Assembly: GCA_030699515.1 (NCBI GenBank)
Contig: JAUYME010000066.1
Location: 1-33,120 of the forward strand
Direction of reading: 5' to 3'
DNA from: a bacterium
GTDB taxonomy: Bacteria; Patescibacteriota; Minisyncoccia; UBA6257; 1-14-0-10-44-23
DNA length: 33,120 nucleotides
Shown: piece after piece, positions 6,092 to 24,443 of the stretch
Numbering within the stretch: position 1 is the first letter of the stretch
Layout of the letters: each line of letters starts with the position of its first letter
Notes under the pieces: generated by a model
The model's input: the letters and a program-made list of their open reading frames with translations, nothing else
Database searches by the model: none
What the model was told of the DNA's origin: nothing
Translations under genes and position numbers: made by a program

Positions 6092-6224
6092 TCTCGCTTT
6101 TTCTGGCCTGACGCTTGGAAGCAAATTAAAATTTGCTTAATTGAAAAGTTTCATAGCAGAAAAGGAGCTTTGTAGAAACAGGTTTTTATTAATTTGAAAT
6201 AATTTTGGACGTGCATCGTTATAT

Positions 6225-6385
6225 ATAGTGATCCCGCTCTATAAATTTCTACTTAATCATATACATAGGGAGGTCTATATCGGCTCTAGCCTTGGCTAGA
6301 CACCTGCGACCACCCACCTAGTTCATACTAGAACTAAGAGAGCGGGGTTCCCTTTCGGGGGAAAAGCGGCGAGAGCCGCTTTTGA
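6225..6385 (+). other. Structured region with closing stem CCCGCUCU/AGAGCGGG, inner hairpins and a terminal AAAAGCGGC-GAGA-GCCGCUUUU hairpin
   Basis: Complementarities read directly from the sequence. Strand and function unknown. Lies upstream of the first ArsR gene. Confidence 0.3.
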
Positions 6386-6393
6386 ACTTGCCT

Positions 6394-6425
6394 CTTGTCC
6401 ATAACTCTATAGAGTTATGGACAAG
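6394..6425. promoter_or_regulatory. 32-nt perfect palindrome cttgtccataactcta|tagagttatggacaag overlapping the ArsR start codon
   Basis: Perfect dyad. ATG 6417 lies in the right arm. Confidence 0.7.
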
Positions 6426-6749
6426 CCGAGTGTTTTTAGGGTAGACATGACAGAAAGTTCAAGAAAAAATTTTTACAGGTTGGAACGCACTGTTAGGGGC
6501 TTTTCTAATCATAGGCGAATTGAGATTTTGCTGCTGCTTCGAGAGCAGAGGAATATTTCGGTGTCGGATATTGCCAAGGAGTTGAATATTTTGCTCAAGA
6601 CTGCATCAGCTCATGTAAACCGCTTGGCACTGGCTGGTCTGGTTTGGAAGCATTCTGATGGCTCAAGTGTAATTTGTGAGTTAAGCGAACTAGGAGAGAA
6701 GACCGTGGATTTTCTAGAGGATATTGCAGAGAAGTTCAATAAAAAGTAG
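6417..6749 (+). CDS. ArsR/SmtB-family winged-HTH regulator
   Basis: FSNHRRIEILLLL...ISVSDIAKEL...SAHVNRLALAGLV, the typical ArsR HTH. Confidence 0.75.
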   Translation: MDKPSVFRVDMTESSRKNFYRLERTVRGFSNHRRIEILLLLREQRNISVSDIAKELNILLKTASAHVNRLALAGLVWKHSDGSSVICELSELGEKTVDFLEDIAEKFNKK

Positions 6750-6756
6750 CCCTTAT

Positions 6757-6788
6757 CTAGTCCATAACTCTATAGAGTTATGGACTAG
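6757..6788. promoter_or_regulatory. 32-nt perfect palindrome ctagtccataactcta|tagagttatggactag (second copy, with compensatory change)
   Basis: Same dyad as 6394-6425 except tt..aa -> ta..ta at mirrored positions. Lies 8 nt after the ArsR stop. Confidence 0.7.
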
Positions 6789-6828
6789 ATGGCTTTTGTT
6801 TTGAGAGCTTTTGTATTAGATTAGAGCG

Positions 6829-8631
6829 ATGGCACTGAATAATATAAGAAATTTTTCAATCCTCGCCCACATTGACCATGGCAAGTCCACCTTAGCTGAC
6901 CGAATGTTGGAGGTGACTAAAACTGTAGAGGCTCGCAAGATGAAGGAGCAGATTTTGGATTCAATGGATTTGGAACGCGAGCGCGGAATTACAATAAAAA
7001 TGGCACCGGTACGGATGGAATACAACTATCAACGCGAATATATCCTCAACTTGATTGATACTCCCGGTCACAGTGATTTTAGTTACGAGGTAAGCCGGGC
7101 AATGCAGGCTGTAGAGGGCGCCATTCTTTTAGTGGATGCAACACAGGGGATTCAGGCACAAACTTTGGCCAACTTTGAAAATGCGAAGAAGGTGGGGCTG
7201 AAAATGATTGGGGTGGTTAACAAGGTAGATGTTGCGGCAGAAGCCCAGGTAGACAGCGCAATTTTAGATTTAGCAGAGCTTTTGGGAGTAGATACAGACG
7301 AAATAATTAAAGCCAGCGGAAAGACTGGTGAAGGGGTGAATGAAATTTTAAATAGGATTGTAGAGGTGGTACCTGCGCCAACTGAAAAAGAATACAAAAC
7401 AAAGGCAGCGCGAGCATTAATTTTTGATAGTGAATACGATGAGCATAGAGGGGTAATTGCTTTTGTGCGGGTATTTTCCGGCAGGTTTGATATTAATGGA
7501 AATTACAGCTTTGTTGCCACAGGGGCAAAATTTAAGGCAAAGGATATCGGATACCTGAAGCCAAAATTTACAACAAACGATGTAATTGAAAATGGGGAGA
7601 TTGGTTATATAGCGACCGGGATTAAGGATCCGGATGCTTTAAAAATTGGAGATACGGTTTCCAATTCAAGCAGTGGGGAGGGTTTGGCGCTTCCGGGCTA
7701 TCAAGATGTTATGCCGGTAGTGTTTGTGAGCTTTTATCCGGAAGATGCAAGTGATTATAACGATTTTGTGAAGGCGCTTTCTAAGCTTCGGCTTTCTGAC
7801 AGTGCGCTGGTTTTTGAGCCGGACAAAAGTGAAGTGTTGGGCAGGGGATTTAAGGGCGGATTTTTAGGCCGGCTTCACTTTGAGATTGTGAGCGAGCGAA
7901 TTGAGCGAGAATTTGACATTGAAACAATTTCATCTTTTCCATCTGTGGCTTATCGAGTAAAGCTTCGTAATACTGATGATTGGATGATTGTAAATAATCC
8001 TAAAGATTTTCCGGATGATTATAGCGAAGTAGAGGAGCCAATGGCTCAAATTGAAATTTTGACTAAGAGTGAATATTTGGGAGCAATTATGGGGCTCTCT
8101 GACTTGTATAGGATAAGTGCAATGCATACGGAAAATGTCGGTTCGGAACGGATTAGGGTTTCTGCAAAATTGCCGCTGGCTGATTTAATTTCTGATTTTG
8201 ACGATAGGTTAAAGAGTGTGAGTGCCGGATTTGCGTCTTTGAGCTATGAATTATCCGGCTATTCCCCGGGTGAACTTGGCAAAATGGAAATTCTTGTTGC
8301 AGAGGCGGTTGTACCCGGACTCACCAGAATTTTGCCTAAGGAAGATATTGAAAGAGAGGGAAGACGGACTGTAGAGAAACTGAAAGATCTTTTACCAAAA
8401 CTTCAATTTAAGCAGGCCATTCAAGCTAGATGCAAAGGAAGAATAATTGCGCGAGAAACTTTGCCTGCGCTAAAGAAAGATGTTACCGGCTACTTGTATG
8501 GCGGAGATATTACCCGTAAGCAAAAGCTTTGGAAGAAGCAAGCGAAAGGAAAGAAGAAGCTTTTGGAGCGCGGAGCCGGAAGCCAAGTGCATGTTCCTGC
8601 TAATGTGTTTAAGGAACTACTGAAGAAATAG
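6829..8631 (+). CDS. lepA: Elongation factor 4 (LepA)
   Basis: IRNFSILAHIDHGKSTL, DTPGH and NKVD GTPase motifs. LepA-specific C-terminal region. Confidence 0.95.
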   Translation: MALNNIRNFSILAHIDHGKSTLADRMLEVTKTVEARKMKEQILDSMDLERERGITIKMAPVRMEYNYQREYILNLIDTPGHSDFSYEVSRAMQAVEGAILLVDATQGIQAQTLANFENAKKVGLKMIGVVNKVDVAAEAQVDSAILDLAELLGVDTDEIIKASGKTGEGVNEILNRIVEVVPAPTEKEYKTKAARALIFDSEYDEHRGVIAFVRVFSGRFDINGNYSFVATGAKFKAKDIGYLKPKFTTNDVIENGEIGYIATGIKDPDALKIGDTVSNSSSGEGLALPGYQDVMPVVFVSFYPEDASDYNDFVKALSKLRLSDSALVFEPDKSEVLGRGFKGGFLGRLHFEIVSERIEREFDIETISSFPSVAYRVKLRNTDDWMIVNNPKDFPDDYSEVEEPMAQIEILTKSEYLGAIMGLSDLYRISAMHTENVGSERIRVSAKLPLADLISDFDDRLKSVSAGFASLSYELSGYSPGELGKMEILVAEAVVPGLTRILPKEDIEREGRRTVEKLKDLLPKLQFKQAIQARCKGRIIARETLPALKKDVTGYLYGGDITRKQKLWKKQAKGKKKLLERGAGSQVHVPANVFKELLKK

Positions 8632-8702
8632 GTTATAGGTAATAGTTTATAGGTTATAGAGAAAACAAGAAAGGATAGGGAATAGTAAGAAAAATAAAGC
8701 CA

Positions 8703-8875
8703 CCACAATCGCACTATGCCGCGGCACAGTGCGATTGTGGGGAGTGGTGTGGTGGGTGGTTAACAAGGTGGTTAACCGCTATAAAGGCTAGAAAGCCTCA
8801 TGAATACTGGGCTTTTGGGCTGTTTAAAAAAGAATTATATAATTTATTATGTAATAAATTATATAATTCTTTTTT
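8703..8875. repeat. Composite module A: hairpin 8703-8740, GGTGGTTAAC x2 (8755-8764, 8767-8776), aagcctcatgaata, A/T-only palindrome 8826-8875
   Basis: Homologous in order and sequence to 32120-32358. The hairpin stems differ by compensatory changes. Confidence 0.8.
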
Positions 8876-8951
8876 TTGGGAAGTCTTATTAAAAAGCGGA
8901 ACCGGCGGCCCTGGAGAGGGTCGCCGGCGCGCGGATGGAGGGTGGGGCTAG

Positions 8952-9188
8952 CTAGCAAACAGAGTGTCCCTTGTTGATCCACTCGTCGAGCTCTTGCTGT
9001 CGAGGGTCGAAGTGGCAGGTGCCTCCGACCTCGCGCCGACAGATAGGGCAGTTTTGCATGTGCTCTATCAGTCGCCGACCAGCAGGATCTGTCGTCTGCT
9101 CGATGGTCTTGGCCGATGGCAATCTGGGGAAGTAGAGGATTTCTCCTTCCGTCGGTCGCCGATCTTGGGGAGAAGGCTGGTCCACCAT
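8952..9188 (-). CDS. GC-rich mini-ORF (78 aa), CPIC...C.H motif, unknown function
   Basis: SD GGAGA lies 6 nt before the ATG. GC-rich third codon positions. A hairpin plus U-tract follows. The overlapping ORFs 8824..9201 and 8964..9347 look like off-frame translations. Confidence 0.55.
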   Translation of the reverse strand: MVDQPSPQDRRPTEGEILYFPRLPSAKTIEQTTDPAGRRLIEHMQNCPICRREVGGTCHFDPRQQELDEWINKGHSVC

Positions 9189-21926: not shown

Positions 21927-21970
21927 AAAAGATTAACGGCTCACACATATGTGTGAGCCGTTAATCTTTT
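21927..21970. terminator. 44-nt perfect palindrome, AAACGGCTCA-family hairpin (copy 2), flanked by A4/T4
   Basis: aaaagattaacggctcacacat|atgtgtgagccgttaatctttt. Confidence 0.75.
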
Positions 21971-22043
21971 CAAAAAGTAGGCGACCCCGCATGCACTGAT
22001 TTCTCCTGTGCATTGTTGCGGGGCCGGGGGGGTGCGTGAGGAC

Positions 22044-22328
22044 TTACGTCGCCTCATCCTCATGGGGGTCCTCCTTGCTAGCAACGAACTCTTGGTTGTA
22101 GGCAGTGTAGACGGCCTTGACCATTGTCCAGGCATCTTCCTCGGAGCCGGCCCGCTCAACTACCCTCTGACTGTTCGGAGAGTACTGATGGAGCATGATG
22201 AGCGCCCAAACGACGATGTAGTCGTTGGTGATCGTGTGCTCCATACCGTCAACGCACACCTTCATGCCAATGAGCTCTTGCAGGCGAGAATAGACCGCGC
22301 CGGTTTCGGGGCGCTTACTGTCGTTCAT
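22044..22328 (-). CDS. GC-rich mini-ORF (94 aa), unknown function
   Basis: SD GGAGA lies 5 nt before the ATG. GC-rich third positions. Own hairpin plus U-tract terminator (about 21975-22025, minus strand). Confidence 0.65.
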   Translation of the reverse strand: MNDSKRPETGAVYSRLQELIGMKVCVDGMEHTITNDYIVVWALIMLHQYSPNSQRVVERAGSEEDAWTMVKAVYTAYNQEFVASKEDPHEDEAT

Positions 22329-22405
22329 CGGGATCTCCTATCGGATATCCTTTTTCCGTTGCTTTATAAATAGCACTTTTGGACTGCTGTGTCTATGTTT
22401 TTTGT

Positions 22406-22579: not shown

Positions 22580-23164
22580 ATGTTGGATAAAAATCAGTTA
22601 GAGCAAATGTATGCTGAGGAAGGAAAGTCTATGCAGGAGATTGCGGATTTGTTTGGTTGTTCGCTTAACAAGGTGAGATATTGGATGGATAGGCTGAAGA
22701 TTAAAAGGCGCAGCATAAGTGATGCTATTTATTTGAGAAGCAATCCCAATGGGGACCCGTTTAAATTCAATAAGCCCAAAACGATTGCGGACGTAGAGCT
22801 TCTTGGGTTGGGCCTAGGGCTTTATTGGGGCGAGGGAACAAAGGCAAGCAAGAGTTCTGTACGACTTGGAAATACGGACCCTAAACTAATTTTGAAATTT
22901 GTTGAGTTTCTTGAAAGAATTTTTTCAGTAAACAGAGGTGATATGAAGTTTGGTTTGCAGATTTTTTCTGATATTTCGCCTAAGAAAGCACTGGACTTTT
23001 GGGCTGAAAAGCTTAGAATAAACAAATCTCAATTTTACAAAGTTATTGTTACGCAGTCTGGCTCAATAGGGACTTACCGAAAGAAGTCTGAGTACGGAGT
23101 TTTGACTGTGTATTACAACAATACGAGATTGAGAGACATGTTAGTTGATATGTTGCCGACGTAG
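22580..23164 (+). CDS. HTH plus single-motif LAGLIDADG homing-endonuclease-like protein (free-standing)
   Basis: N-terminal HTH (SMQEIADLFGCSLNKVRYWM). LAGLIDADG-like LLGLGLGLYWGEGTK, followed by KLILKFVEFLERIF and GVLTVYYNN. Stop TAG 23162-23164 lies inside the tRNA 5' exon. Confidence 0.7.
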   Translation: MLDKNQLEQMYAEEGKSMQEIADLFGCSLNKVRYWMDRLKIKRRSISDAIYLRSNPNGDPFKFNKPKTIADVELLGLGLGLYWGEGTKASKSSVRLGNTDPKLILKFVEFLERIFSVNRGDMKFGLQIFSDISPKKALDFWAEKLRINKSQFYKVIVTQSGSIGTYRKKSEYGVLTVYYNNTRLRDMLVDMLPT

Positions 23165-23441
23165 CTCAGGGGTAGAGCACTTCCATGGTAATTCGCTAGA
23201 ATTTGCCCATTAGCGCCGAAATGCGCTTTTTGTATCCCGAATAACGGTTAAAGGCCTTAAGCGAGGCTCAGACCGTGGCGTTTTGCCTGCCTGCCGGCAG
23301 GCAGGCGCCCGAACGACTGACAAGGGACTACGTACTCTTTTGAGCGTAGAAGATACAGTCTAGCCTCTCTATAAGCTTTTTATGAAATGAGAGTGTAAGC
23401 GAAGGAAGGGGTCGCGAGTTCAATTCTCGCCGTCGGCTCCA
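23155..23441 (+). tRNA. tRNA-Thr(GGU) interrupted by a group I intron after anticodon position 36; CCA encoded
   Basis: Exon 1 (23155-23189): GCCGACG TA GCTC AGGGGTA GAGC A CTTCC ATGGT. Exon 2 (23402-23441): AA GGAAG GGGTC GCGAG TTCAATT CTCGC CGTCGGC T CCA. Confidence 0.8.
23190..23401 (+). mobile_element. Group I intron (212 nt, no internal ORF)
   Basis: P1 GGU|AAUUC-GCUA-GAAUU(U)GCC with U-G at the splice site. P2 AGCGC/GCGCU, P3 UCCC/GGGA, P4 ACGGU/ACCGU, P5 GGCCU/AGGCU, P7 GACUG/CAGUC, P8 CUACG..CGUAG. J8/7 AAGAUA. Terminal G at 23401. Confidence 0.8.
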
Positions 23442-23442
23442 A

Positions 23443-23464
23443 CTTGCCATAAAGGGCAAGTTTT
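23443..23464 (+). terminator. Intrinsic terminator after tRNA-Thr
   Basis: cttgcc-ataaag-ggcaag tttt. Confidence 0.65.
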
Positions 23465-23521
23465 GCTATTGTCTAGCGATTAATGAACATCGCGCTAAGC
23501 GCGACTATCTAATAAATTAAA

Positions 23522-23698
23522 GTGGCAGATTCAAAATTCTCAAAAAACATAGTAAAGCTTCGTTGCGTTGATTGTGGCAAAACCAACTACTACACTAGGA
23601 AGAACAAAAAGCTGGTAGAGCGTAAATTGGAGTTCAAAAAATACTGTAACCATAAGGACTGCCACAAGCACACTGTTCATAAAGAAGCTAAAAAGTAA
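23522..23698 (+). CDS. rpmG: 50S ribosomal protein L33 (Cys-containing form), GTG start
   Basis: VADSKFSKNIVKLRCVDCGKTNYYTRKNKKLVERKLEFKKYCNHKDCHKHTVHKEAKK. Below the ORF-track size cutoff. Confidence 0.8.
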   Translation: MADSKFSKNIVKLRCVDCGKTNYYTRKNKKLVERKLEFKKYCNHKDCHKHTVHKEAKK

Positions 23699-23730
23699 AA
23701 ATCTACGCGTTGCGTAGATTTTTACTTTTT
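23690..23730 (+). terminator. Palindromic terminator overlapping the rpmG stop
   Basis: aaaaagtaaaaatctacgc-gt-tgcgtagatttttacttttt. Confidence 0.7.
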
Positions 23731-23811
23731 AGCTGTTGGAGATGAAGAGTCATTTTGCAGATGTCTTTAAATTTGGAGCTTACTTCTGTATAGTTGAGGT
23801 CAGTCCGAACA

Positions 23812-23884: not shown

Positions 23885-24046
23885 CACGAATTTTCTCTAA
23901 ATTTTCAAACTGCTAAGTGTGGAAAATTTAGCTAGAAAAATCTGTGCCCCGCCACCACTTGATGATCTGCGCGGGCTAATATTGACTTTTATTATTTTTT
24001 GTGTTATTTTTTGTTTACTCAGATTTCCAAAAGAAGGAGGTGTTTG

Positions 24047-24211
24047 ATGGGTAAGTATTGCGTAAACTGCAAACATCTGCTTCGCAAGGAGGCAGATGGG
24101 CCACGGTTCAACGTTTGGTACAATCTTCTGTGTAGGAAGGCTCCCCGAGAAGTCGCGGTTGATCCCGTGACTGGCGAGGCTGGCTTCGAGGCTGTAAACT
24201 CCTTGGGTTAG
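24047..24211 (+). CDS. GC-rich Cys-rich mini-ORF (54 aa to an in-frame TAG; the frame stays open 25 more codons to TAG 24287-24289)
   Basis: Perfect SD AAGGAGGTG lies 4-5 nt before the ATG. CVNC...C...DPVTGE. After the TAG: RYFTEDAFQNCRDVNQGECEMWEPQ. Confidence 0.55.
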   Translation: MGKYCVNCKHLLRKEADGPRFNVWYNLLCRKAPREVAVDPVTGEAGFEAVNSLG

Positions 24212-24443
24212 CGCTACTTCACAGAAGACGCCTTCCAGAACTGCAGAGATGTGAACCAGGGAGAATGCGAGATGTGGGAGCCTCAATAGGCTCTGCATCT
24301 CAGCTATGCGTCACCTGCTAGAAGTGGTGAAATAGGGAAAGTTTAACCCAGCGCGGAACCCCGGTGTCTGAAAGGATGTTGGGGTTTCATGGTTTTTAGA
24401 AACAGATCTTGGTTTGAATTTCCTCCATGATGCCCTGCTAAAT

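Follow-up and report, generated by a model that had tools for sequence, protein, structure and literature searches.

A probable compact group I intron that splits tRNA-Thr(GGU) genes of Patescibacteria in the anticodon loop

The DNA analysed here, called the window below, is a stretch of 33,120 nucleotides (nt) that covers positions 1 to 33,120 of contig JAUYME010000066.1 (assembly GCA_030699515.1), from a bacterium of the Patescibacteria, or candidate phyla radiation (CPR). The genes rpsB, tsf, a small open reading frame (ORF), tRNA-Tyr, tRNA-Thr(UGU), a gene with a helix-turn-helix (HTH) domain, tRNA-Thr(GGU), rpmG, tRNA-Trp and the ATP synthase genes follow each other in this order, and the order is identical in a metagenome-assembled genome (MAG) of Parcubacteria, L001. 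The sole tRNA-Thr(GGU) gene of the contig (23155-23441, forward strand) is split directly 3' of the anticodon. It is split at an exactly defined junction by an insert with a conserved and covarying fold, and inserts of this kind are widely distributed. We are confident that the insert is a compact group I intron without an ORF, placed in the anticodon loop between tRNA nucleotides 36 and 37.

The 5' exon, GCCGACGTAGCTCAGGGGTAGAGCACTTCCATGGT, comprises the acceptor strand, the D arm, the 5' strand of the anticodon stem and A32 U33 G34 G35 U36. The 3' exon, AAGGAAGGGGTCGCGAGTTCAATTCTCGCCGTCGGCTCCA, begins with AAGGAAGGGGTC and ends with GGCTCCA, and it holds A37 A38, the 3' strand of the anticodon stem, the variable loop, the T arm, the acceptor strand, U73 and an encoded CCA. 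The insert between them reads AATTCG...TGTAAGCG, or with longer ends AATTCGCTAG...GAGAGTGTAAGCG. When introns are allowed, ARAGORN calls a tRNA-Thr(ggt) at 23155-23441 that is 75 nt long after splicing, with the 212-nt intron between 'atggt' and 'aagga'; ARAGORN with default settings and the Rfam tRNA model call no gene at these positions, and the intron-aware scan of the window finds no other split tRNA. In the intron-less orthologues the same place reads CCATGGT-AAGGAG, exactly as in the spliced form. Since the joined exons of the intron-bearing genes are the same as the intron-less genes, alternative junctions are excluded, and the insertion bond is the one between tRNA nucleotides 36 and 37. 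A preliminary description of this DNA, made from its letters alone, had joined the exon halves to a 75-nt tRNA with the anticodon loop AUGGUAA and placed a 212-nt insert after position 36. The intron-aware search and the intron-less orthologues bear this out, the same bond is used in 49 of 80 genome loci, and the different exon junction that it had considered as a way to overturn its reading is ruled out by the orthologous loci and is not the one that ARAGORN finds.

The 80 loci from CPR genomes were retrieved through an alignment of the about 2000 relatives of the HTH gene upstream of the tRNA, and the sample is therefore biased toward that gene. In 79 of them the upstream gene is followed by tRNA-Thr(GGU), which overlaps the 3' end of that gene or begins no more than about 130 nt downstream. 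The tRNA is uninterrupted in 30 loci, e.g. L001 (...CAACTCCATGGTAAGGAGTAG...), and 49 carry a homologous insert of 169-254 nt that lies exactly between GGT and AAGG and always ends in G. Metagenomes were scanned with the core pattern GAACGACTGNCAA N15-45 AGATACAGTC, which matched at least 120 contigs. Of the 120 listed, 104 can be read as tRNA-Thr(GGU) genes whose insert begins right behind GGU, and all of these 104 introns end in G and belong to tRNAs whose acceptor starts with GCC. With 61% of the sampled genome loci and at least 104 metagenome contigs, the tRNA-Thr intron is widespread in Patescibacteria and not rare.

The cloverleaf is intact in every parsed intron-bearing locus (47 genome loci, the window and the 104 metagenome contigs), with 12 of 12 pairs in the acceptor and T stems and 5 of 5 in the anticodon stem. 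ARAGORN assigns some of the metagenome loci (L093-L212) to Arg(GCG), His, Pro, Leu or Phe, but we reject these as other host tRNAs. In such cases the junction has slid by 1-3 nt because the intron begins G-rich and ends in GCG or GUG; the 5' exon always ends in CCAUGGU, the intron in G and the 3' exon begins with AAGG, and together with the GCC acceptor this is tRNA-Thr(GGU). The context CC(A/U)UGGU-AAGG is found in 47 of 48 intron-bearing tRNA-Thr genes. Among the 32 intron-less genes listed, of which two duplicate other loci, just 8 have AAGG at positions 37-40. This suggests that the exon context constrains where the intron can be present, via the P10 pairing or the specificity of a homing site, or it may reflect shared ancestry instead.

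The evidence for the fold comes from two alignments. In one of them (A2), 48 pre-tRNA segments were aligned with MAFFT and the group I fold was written onto the result; in the other, 99 sequences (98 distinct) were realigned with a covariance model. The second is fitted to the structure and leans toward the fold, and the MAFFT result is independent of it. In the MAFFT alignment 88.4% of the cells are paired and 35 pairs have changed on both sides, and the corresponding values for the covariance-model alignment are 90.6% and compensatory changes in 40 of 54 pairs. Shifting the 3' strands of the helices by 1-3 columns as a control leaves 28-47% of the cells paired, and none of 500 shuffles attains the observed value on any of five measures. 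The helices are 87-100% paired except for the length-variable P8 (69%), and P2, P5, P6, P8 and P9 covary strongly. The insert also folds more stably than shuffled sequences (z = -2.9), and the minimum free energy (MFE) fold of the window sequence independently yields P1, P2, P4-P6, P7 around P8, and P9. A covariance model built from the tRNA-Thr intron family, R1, gives the intron of the window 184 bits.

The coordinates of all elements are collected in Table 1. The splice-site pair in P1, U23189·G23205, is U·G in all 98 sequences and is flanked by two invariant G-C pairs, the guide GCC being invariant as well. P1 is extended by covarying pairs between 23190-23194 and 23199-23203, with U23204 unpaired. 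In the loop of P2, G37, A39 and A40 are invariant or nearly so in alignment A2. P3 is made of C-G pairs in 86-96 of the 98 sequences, with U-A and U-G variants, and P4 encloses J4/5 (AAA), P5 and J5/4. The extension of P6 is peculiar to the window; it is a perfect 22-nt palindrome, GCCTGCCTGCCGGCAGGCAGGC (23285-23306), and the P6 loops of the homologues are unrelated to it. Only one sequence, L069, varies at the bulge of P7, where the flanking A-U has become G-C and the bulge A. The pair next to this bulge, G23315-C23360, is the proposed guanosine-binding pair. J8/7 and P7 together form the motif AAGATACAGTC at 23350-23360, which reads AAGAUACAGUC. In P9.0 one pair is GC in 50 sequences, AU in 40 and GU in 4, and the other is CG in 52, UA in 40 and UG in 5. 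The fold holds no P5abc, P7.1 or P7.2, and L9 is no simple tetraloop. The preliminary description had drawn P1-P9 by eye, with the U of the 5' splice site paired to a G in P1, the J8/7-P7 motif and a terminal G. All four features reappear here: the helices are borne out by covariation in the 98 sequences, the splice-site pair also by the MFE fold, the motif lies at its place in the window, and the terminal G is shared by all homologues.

Table 1. Positions of the split tRNA gene, the elements of its intron and the adjoining features in the window.
Feature	Position	Strand	Basis or remark
Conserved CPR gene, HTH and alpha/beta domain of unknown kind, 194 amino acids (aa)	22580-23164	+	context, outside the intron
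tRNA-Thr(GGU) 5' exon, nt 1-36	23155-23189	+	35 nt; intron-aware ARAGORN, uninterrupted orthologues L001 and L002
Group I-type intron, no ORF	23190-23401	+	212 nt; covariation fold, R1 184 bits, same-site homologues
P1	23187-23207	+	exon GGU 23187-23189 with guide GCC 23205-23207; MFE fold
P2 hairpin	23208-23232	+	GNRA loop L2 GAAA 23218-23221; all 10 pairs changed on both sides
P3, 5' strand UCCC	23235-23238	+	pairs with 23324-23327, pseudoknot with P7
J3/4 GAAUAA	23239-23244	+	nearly invariant, alignment A2
P4	23245-23249 / 23271-23275	+	invariant, 100% paired
P5	23253-23257 / 23264-23268	+	4 pairs with compensatory changes
P6 and window-specific extension	23277-23280 / 23306-23309 (span 23277-23309)	+	4 of 4 pairs covary (GC, AU, CG); MFE fold
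J6/7 CGA and P7 5' strand	23310-23319	+	A23313 (pairs with U23361), bulged C23314, GACUG 23315-23319 (pairs with CAGUC 23356-23360); invariant in 97-98 sequences
P3, 3' strand GGGA	23324-23327	+	pairing in the 98-sequence alignment
P8 hairpin	23328-23349	+	all 5 pairs compensatory; length-variable, 69% paired in a fixed register
J8/7 AAGAUA and P7 3' strand CAGUCU	23350-23361	+	J8/7 23350-23355, P7 23356-23361; nearly invariant
P9.0	23363-23400	+	GC 23363-23364 with GC 23399-23400, enclosing P9; 100% paired
P9	23365-23369 / 23389-23393	+	98.6% paired, 5 of 5 pairs covary
Terminal guanosine (omega-G), 3' splice site	23401	+	G in 98/98 aligned and 104/104 metagenome introns
tRNA-Thr(GGU) 3' exon	23402-23441	+	40 nt; ARAGORN, orthologous loci
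Terminator-like hairpin and U-rich tail	23441-23472	+	directly after the CCA end of the tRNA

Within the family, the loop of P2 and the helix P8 vary together. A UAAG...UAUG motif is present in P8 of 24 of the 61 members whose L2 loop is GAAA, and in none of the 33 members with GUAA, GCAA, GCGA, GUGA or GGAA, which have short G+C-rich P8 hairpins instead. The motif probably resembles the 11-nt receptor of GAAA loops, and we take a docking of L2 on P8 as a lead only.

Several results speak against a group I intron. The Rfam model of these introns, RF00028 (Intron_gpI), has no match in the window, either at its gathering score or at E <= 10; searches of 20 homologous CPR loci and 7 viral loci at E <= 1 were equally negative. 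R1 does not detect the td intron of phage T4, so there is no profile or sequence bridge to a group I intron that is proven experimentally. P4 and P7 are invariant and thus carry no covariation information, P3 is very short with three solid pairs and a variable fourth, and P10, in the register that joins A38-G40 to the three nucleotides 5' of GCC, is complete in no more than 52 of the 98 sequences (in the adjacent register, in 11).

The search with RF00028 had been proposed as a check in the preliminary description, and it yields no score, but the check is an insensitive one. The T4 td intron, used as a control (L092 1560-1790, reverse strand, phage T4T), reaches 40.3 bits (E = 4e-8), which is also under the gathering score of 50, and the missing score is therefore weak evidence against the assignment and no refutation. 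Default Rfam annotation would overlook even the td intron. The consensus of RF00028 contains ..UCAaAGACUA.. and ..AAGAUAUAGUCu.., followed by the P9 hairpin and then aG. The J6/7-P7 and J8/7-P7 sequences of the tRNA-Thr intron, CGAACGACUGA and AAGAUACAGUC, match UCAaAGACUA and AAGAUAUAGUC of the model, the latter at 10 of 11 positions of J8/7 and the 3' strand of P7, and the conserved elements CGAACGACUGACAA and AAGAUACAGUCU compare with UCAaAGACUAAA and AAGAUAUAGUCu. The closing pair of P7 is exchanged on both strands, from A-U in the consensus to G-C in the family. RF00028 expects a P3 of 7 base pairs (bp) and a J3/4 of 3 nt, whereas the family has 3-4 bp and 6 nt, and this short P3 and long J3/4 probably cost most of the score. 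RF00028 misses the whole family, whereas its members score 145-211 bits with R1, and annotation of the family therefore calls for a model of its own.

The same intron core is found on seven viral contigs of IMG/VR, with R1 scores of 79-126 bits. There is one copy each on L085, L086, L088 and L089/L090. On L087 (IMG/VR UViG_3300020570_000137; the same sequence is in L091 and L100) three copies lie within 1.6 kb and score 104-126 bits. When they are removed at the sites predicted from P1 and P9.0 (6280-6469, 6746-6935 and 7569-7752; gene region 6187-9000), an ORF of 442 aa results, and its residues 25-144 align with positions 24-144 of the major head protein PHROG 9953 over two junctions with the length unchanged. 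Other in-frame junctions keep the frame open too, and the capsid-gene case is for that reason supportive, not decisive; it does show the lineage acting as an intron in a place where a reading frame serves as a check. Among 50,697 annotated phages, blastn found no match to the tRNA intron or to an intron from a viral contig, and tblastn of the spliced capsid protein against phages found nothing.

If the RNA acts as its fold implies, the pre-tRNA would probably share its transcript with the upstream gene and end at the hairpin after CCA. The exon end GGU and the guide GCC would pair as P1 and thereby put a U·G wobble at the splice site, and P2-P9 would fold into a P4-P6 and a P3-P8 domain around the P3/P7 pseudoknot, where the GNRA loop L2 probably docks on P8. 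Free guanosine, bound at G23315-C23360 in P7, would then attack the bond after U36. P9.0 would bring G23401 into the guanosine site, while A38 G39 G40 of the 3' exon could pair just 5' of the guide as P10, and the freed 3'-OH of U36 would attack the 3' splice site to give the 75-nt tRNA-Thr(GGU). By analogy with known group I introns, we infer that the tRNA-Thr intron catalyses its own splicing, depends on guanosine and is independent of proteins.

One could instead imagine a group I-derived intron that needs a protein cofactor in vivo, a maturase or chaperone, for which the upstream HTH protein is one candidate. We consider this unlikely, although the small P3 and the size of the intron, which is among the smallest group I-like RNAs, could call for such help. 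The upstream gene (locus tag Q8Q32_02945) is a conserved one, with about 2000 relatives of 55-75% identity across the CPR classes, every one of them from Patescibacteria/CPR MAGs. In each of the 79 genome loci in which the tRNA was found, this gene adjoins it, a number that is biased by the retrieval through the gene. Its TAG stop codon coincides with tRNA nucleotides 8-10, as it does in 53 loci, so that cleavage of a common transcript by RNase P would take the stop codon away from the upstream gene. The protein consists of an N-terminal HTH and a C-terminal domain with an invariant GLGLYWGEGTK motif, and its HTH is similar to the HTH of PHROG families that carry the label HNH endonuclease and to the DNA-binding HTH of phage homing endonuclease families. 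Against a cofactor stands that the gene also adjoins the 30 intron-less tRNAs, that it is missing from about 50 of the about 90 intron-bearing metagenome loci among the matches listed, and that the relatives on viral contigs lack an HTH neighbour of this type. ORF and intron thus occur independently of each other, and we reject the upstream gene as a partner that the intron requires. Nor does the fold of the protein match maturase-type LAGLIDADG proteins. A LAGLIDADG endonuclease was considered and rejected: the LAGLIDADG_3 hit has E = 0.046 and 14.4 bits against a cut-off of 22.5, and the AlphaFold2 model (pLDDT 88.5) shows beta-alpha repeats in place of the expected alpha-beta-beta-alpha-beta-beta-alpha fold. 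Foldseek of the model against the PDB gives no LAGLIDADG enzyme and nothing at E <= 1e-3, and a profile search of the PDB with the protein gives HTH matches only.

A dead insertion is far less probable still. It would make tRNA-Thr(GGU) a pseudogene that was broken by a decayed mobile element, with ACC and ACU read by tRNA-Thr(UGU), and it has in its favour that standard tools call no gene and that a tRNA-Thr(UGU) gene lies 0.7 kb away. The perfect cloverleaf that the exons keep in all parsed intron-bearing loci argues against it, as do the compensatory changes and the invariant positions of the catalytic core, which are what purifying selection leaves in an RNA that functions. We find it hardly conceivable that the insert is a protein-spliced bulge-helix-bulge intron or a ribozyme of another class, such as group II or a small self-cleaver. 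Protein-spliced tRNA introns do sit in the anticodon loop as well, but their canonical site is 37/38 and not 36/37, and bacteria are not known to have a tRNA splicing endonuclease. Both junctions are located within the group I fold, one in P1 and the other behind P9.0, though no dedicated search for the bulge-helix-bulge motif was made. With 212 nt the insert is far too small for group II, and no Rfam ribozyme family matches it. What is conserved in it belongs to group I: the U·G pair of P1, the omega-G, P9.0 and the pseudoknot of P3 with P7.

How the group I-type intron is inherited can be approached through the upstream gene in the genome sample. The nearest neighbour of the ORF has the same intron state in 44 of 53 loci. 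Intron state thus tracks the relatedness of the ORF, which suggests mainly vertical persistence with gains or losses, and we draw no strong conclusion on mobility. The distances of ORF and intron are uncorrelated (Spearman r = 0.01, Mantel p = 0.44), probably because they are saturated.

Elsewhere in the neighbourhood, a perfect hairpin of 47 nt lies just 3' of rpmG (23687-23733). Two G+C-rich islands (0.51-0.58, against about 0.36-0.44 nearby) are located between the tRNA genes, at 21930-22400 and 24000-24400. They have no match in Pfam, NCBIfam or Rfam and hold overlapping ORFs on both strands (22008-22373 on the forward and 22044-22328 on the reverse strand), and they may encode structured RNAs or small proteins that have so far escaped recognition.

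Two wider ideas follow. The insert could belong to a group I lineage that is uncatalogued and invisible to Rfam, near-endemic in the tRNA-Thr(GGU) of Patescibacteria, and with a recent common core with introns in the major capsid genes of phages. We put this forward tentatively and regard it as doubtful in its entirety. If it were true, phages might carry the intron from one CPR host to another, and because of it the annotation of CPR genomes would systematically overlook an essential tRNA. A still bolder extension is that the intron and the abutting HTH gene might be a cooperating mobile or regulatory unit aimed at tRNA-Thr(GGU), because the stop codon lies inside the tRNA and the HTH is like that of homing endonucleases.

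The practical consequence is that tRNA-Thr(GGU) will seem to be lacking in many CPR genomes, or that intron-aware tools will assign it to Arg, His or Pro, and such errors distort estimates of genome completeness and inferences about decoding. The finding also adds at least a fifth isoacceptor to the short list of bacterial tRNAs with group I introns. One intron lineage in many CPR classes and in phage capsid genes is a tractable case of intron exchange between ultra-small bacteria and phages, and a ribozyme of 169-254 nt with a P3 of 3 bp may, if active, be a minimal group I scaffold.

That some CPR tRNAs carry group I introns that hinder their detection has been mentioned as a personal communication of P. 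Chan (PMC8172020). PMC12641178 cites Nakagawa et al. 2025 (bioRxiv 10.1101/2025.07.03.662931) on group I introns in Patescibacteria tRNA genes. Phylum, class of host gene and kind of element are thereby the same as here, but by its title that preprint deals with an insertion site that is new, and 36/37 is already known. Our full-text search of the literature found no description of a group I intron in tRNA-Thr. The kind of element is thus known, and the isoacceptor and the lineage appear to be new or only just being described. For other bacterial tRNAs, the tRNAscan-SE 2.0 paper (PMC8450103) treats group I intron cases in tRNA-fMet and tRNA-Ile2 and cites the introns of cyanobacterial and plastid tRNA-Leu(UAA) and of cyanobacterial tRNA-fMet. 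RF00028 is reported there to have helped to identify the tRNA-Ile2 introns, while the tRNA-Thr intron family scores nothing with that model.

Compared with the T4 td intron, whose core reads AACGACUA and GAGAUAUAGUCU, the tRNA-Thr intron has AACGACUG and AAGAUACAGUCU, and the family lacks both the P7.1/P7.2 helices that follow P7 in td and the endonuclease ORF. The introns of tRNA-Leu(UAA), located at 34/35 and not at 36/37, and of tRNA-fMet belong to other isoacceptors and to another phylum. Closer counterparts are the group I introns of subgroup IC3 in tRNA-Ile(CAU) of Azoarcus and tRNA-Arg(CCU) of Agrobacterium, which Reinhold-Hurek and Shub are said to have described in 1992 at the bond 36/37. 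They reportedly also sit in the anticodon loop of their tRNA, measure about 200 nt, have no ORF, form only three base pairs between exon and guide in P1, including a splice-site U·G, and have P2-P9 without large peripheral domains. The apparent covariation of L2 and P8 in the tRNA-Thr family would fit a contact like the one between the L2 tetraloop and its P8 receptor in the Azoarcus intron. The tRNA-Thr intron differs from these two in its host tRNA-Thr(GGU), in the guide GCC and in a P3 of only 3-4 bp, and its J8/7-P7 sequence AAGAUACAGUC is the general group I consensus, unlike that of Azoarcus. With its place in the anticodon loop, its compactness, the lack of an ORF and the presence of P2 and P9, the tRNA-Thr intron fits the IC3 type of bacterial tRNA introns in its layout.

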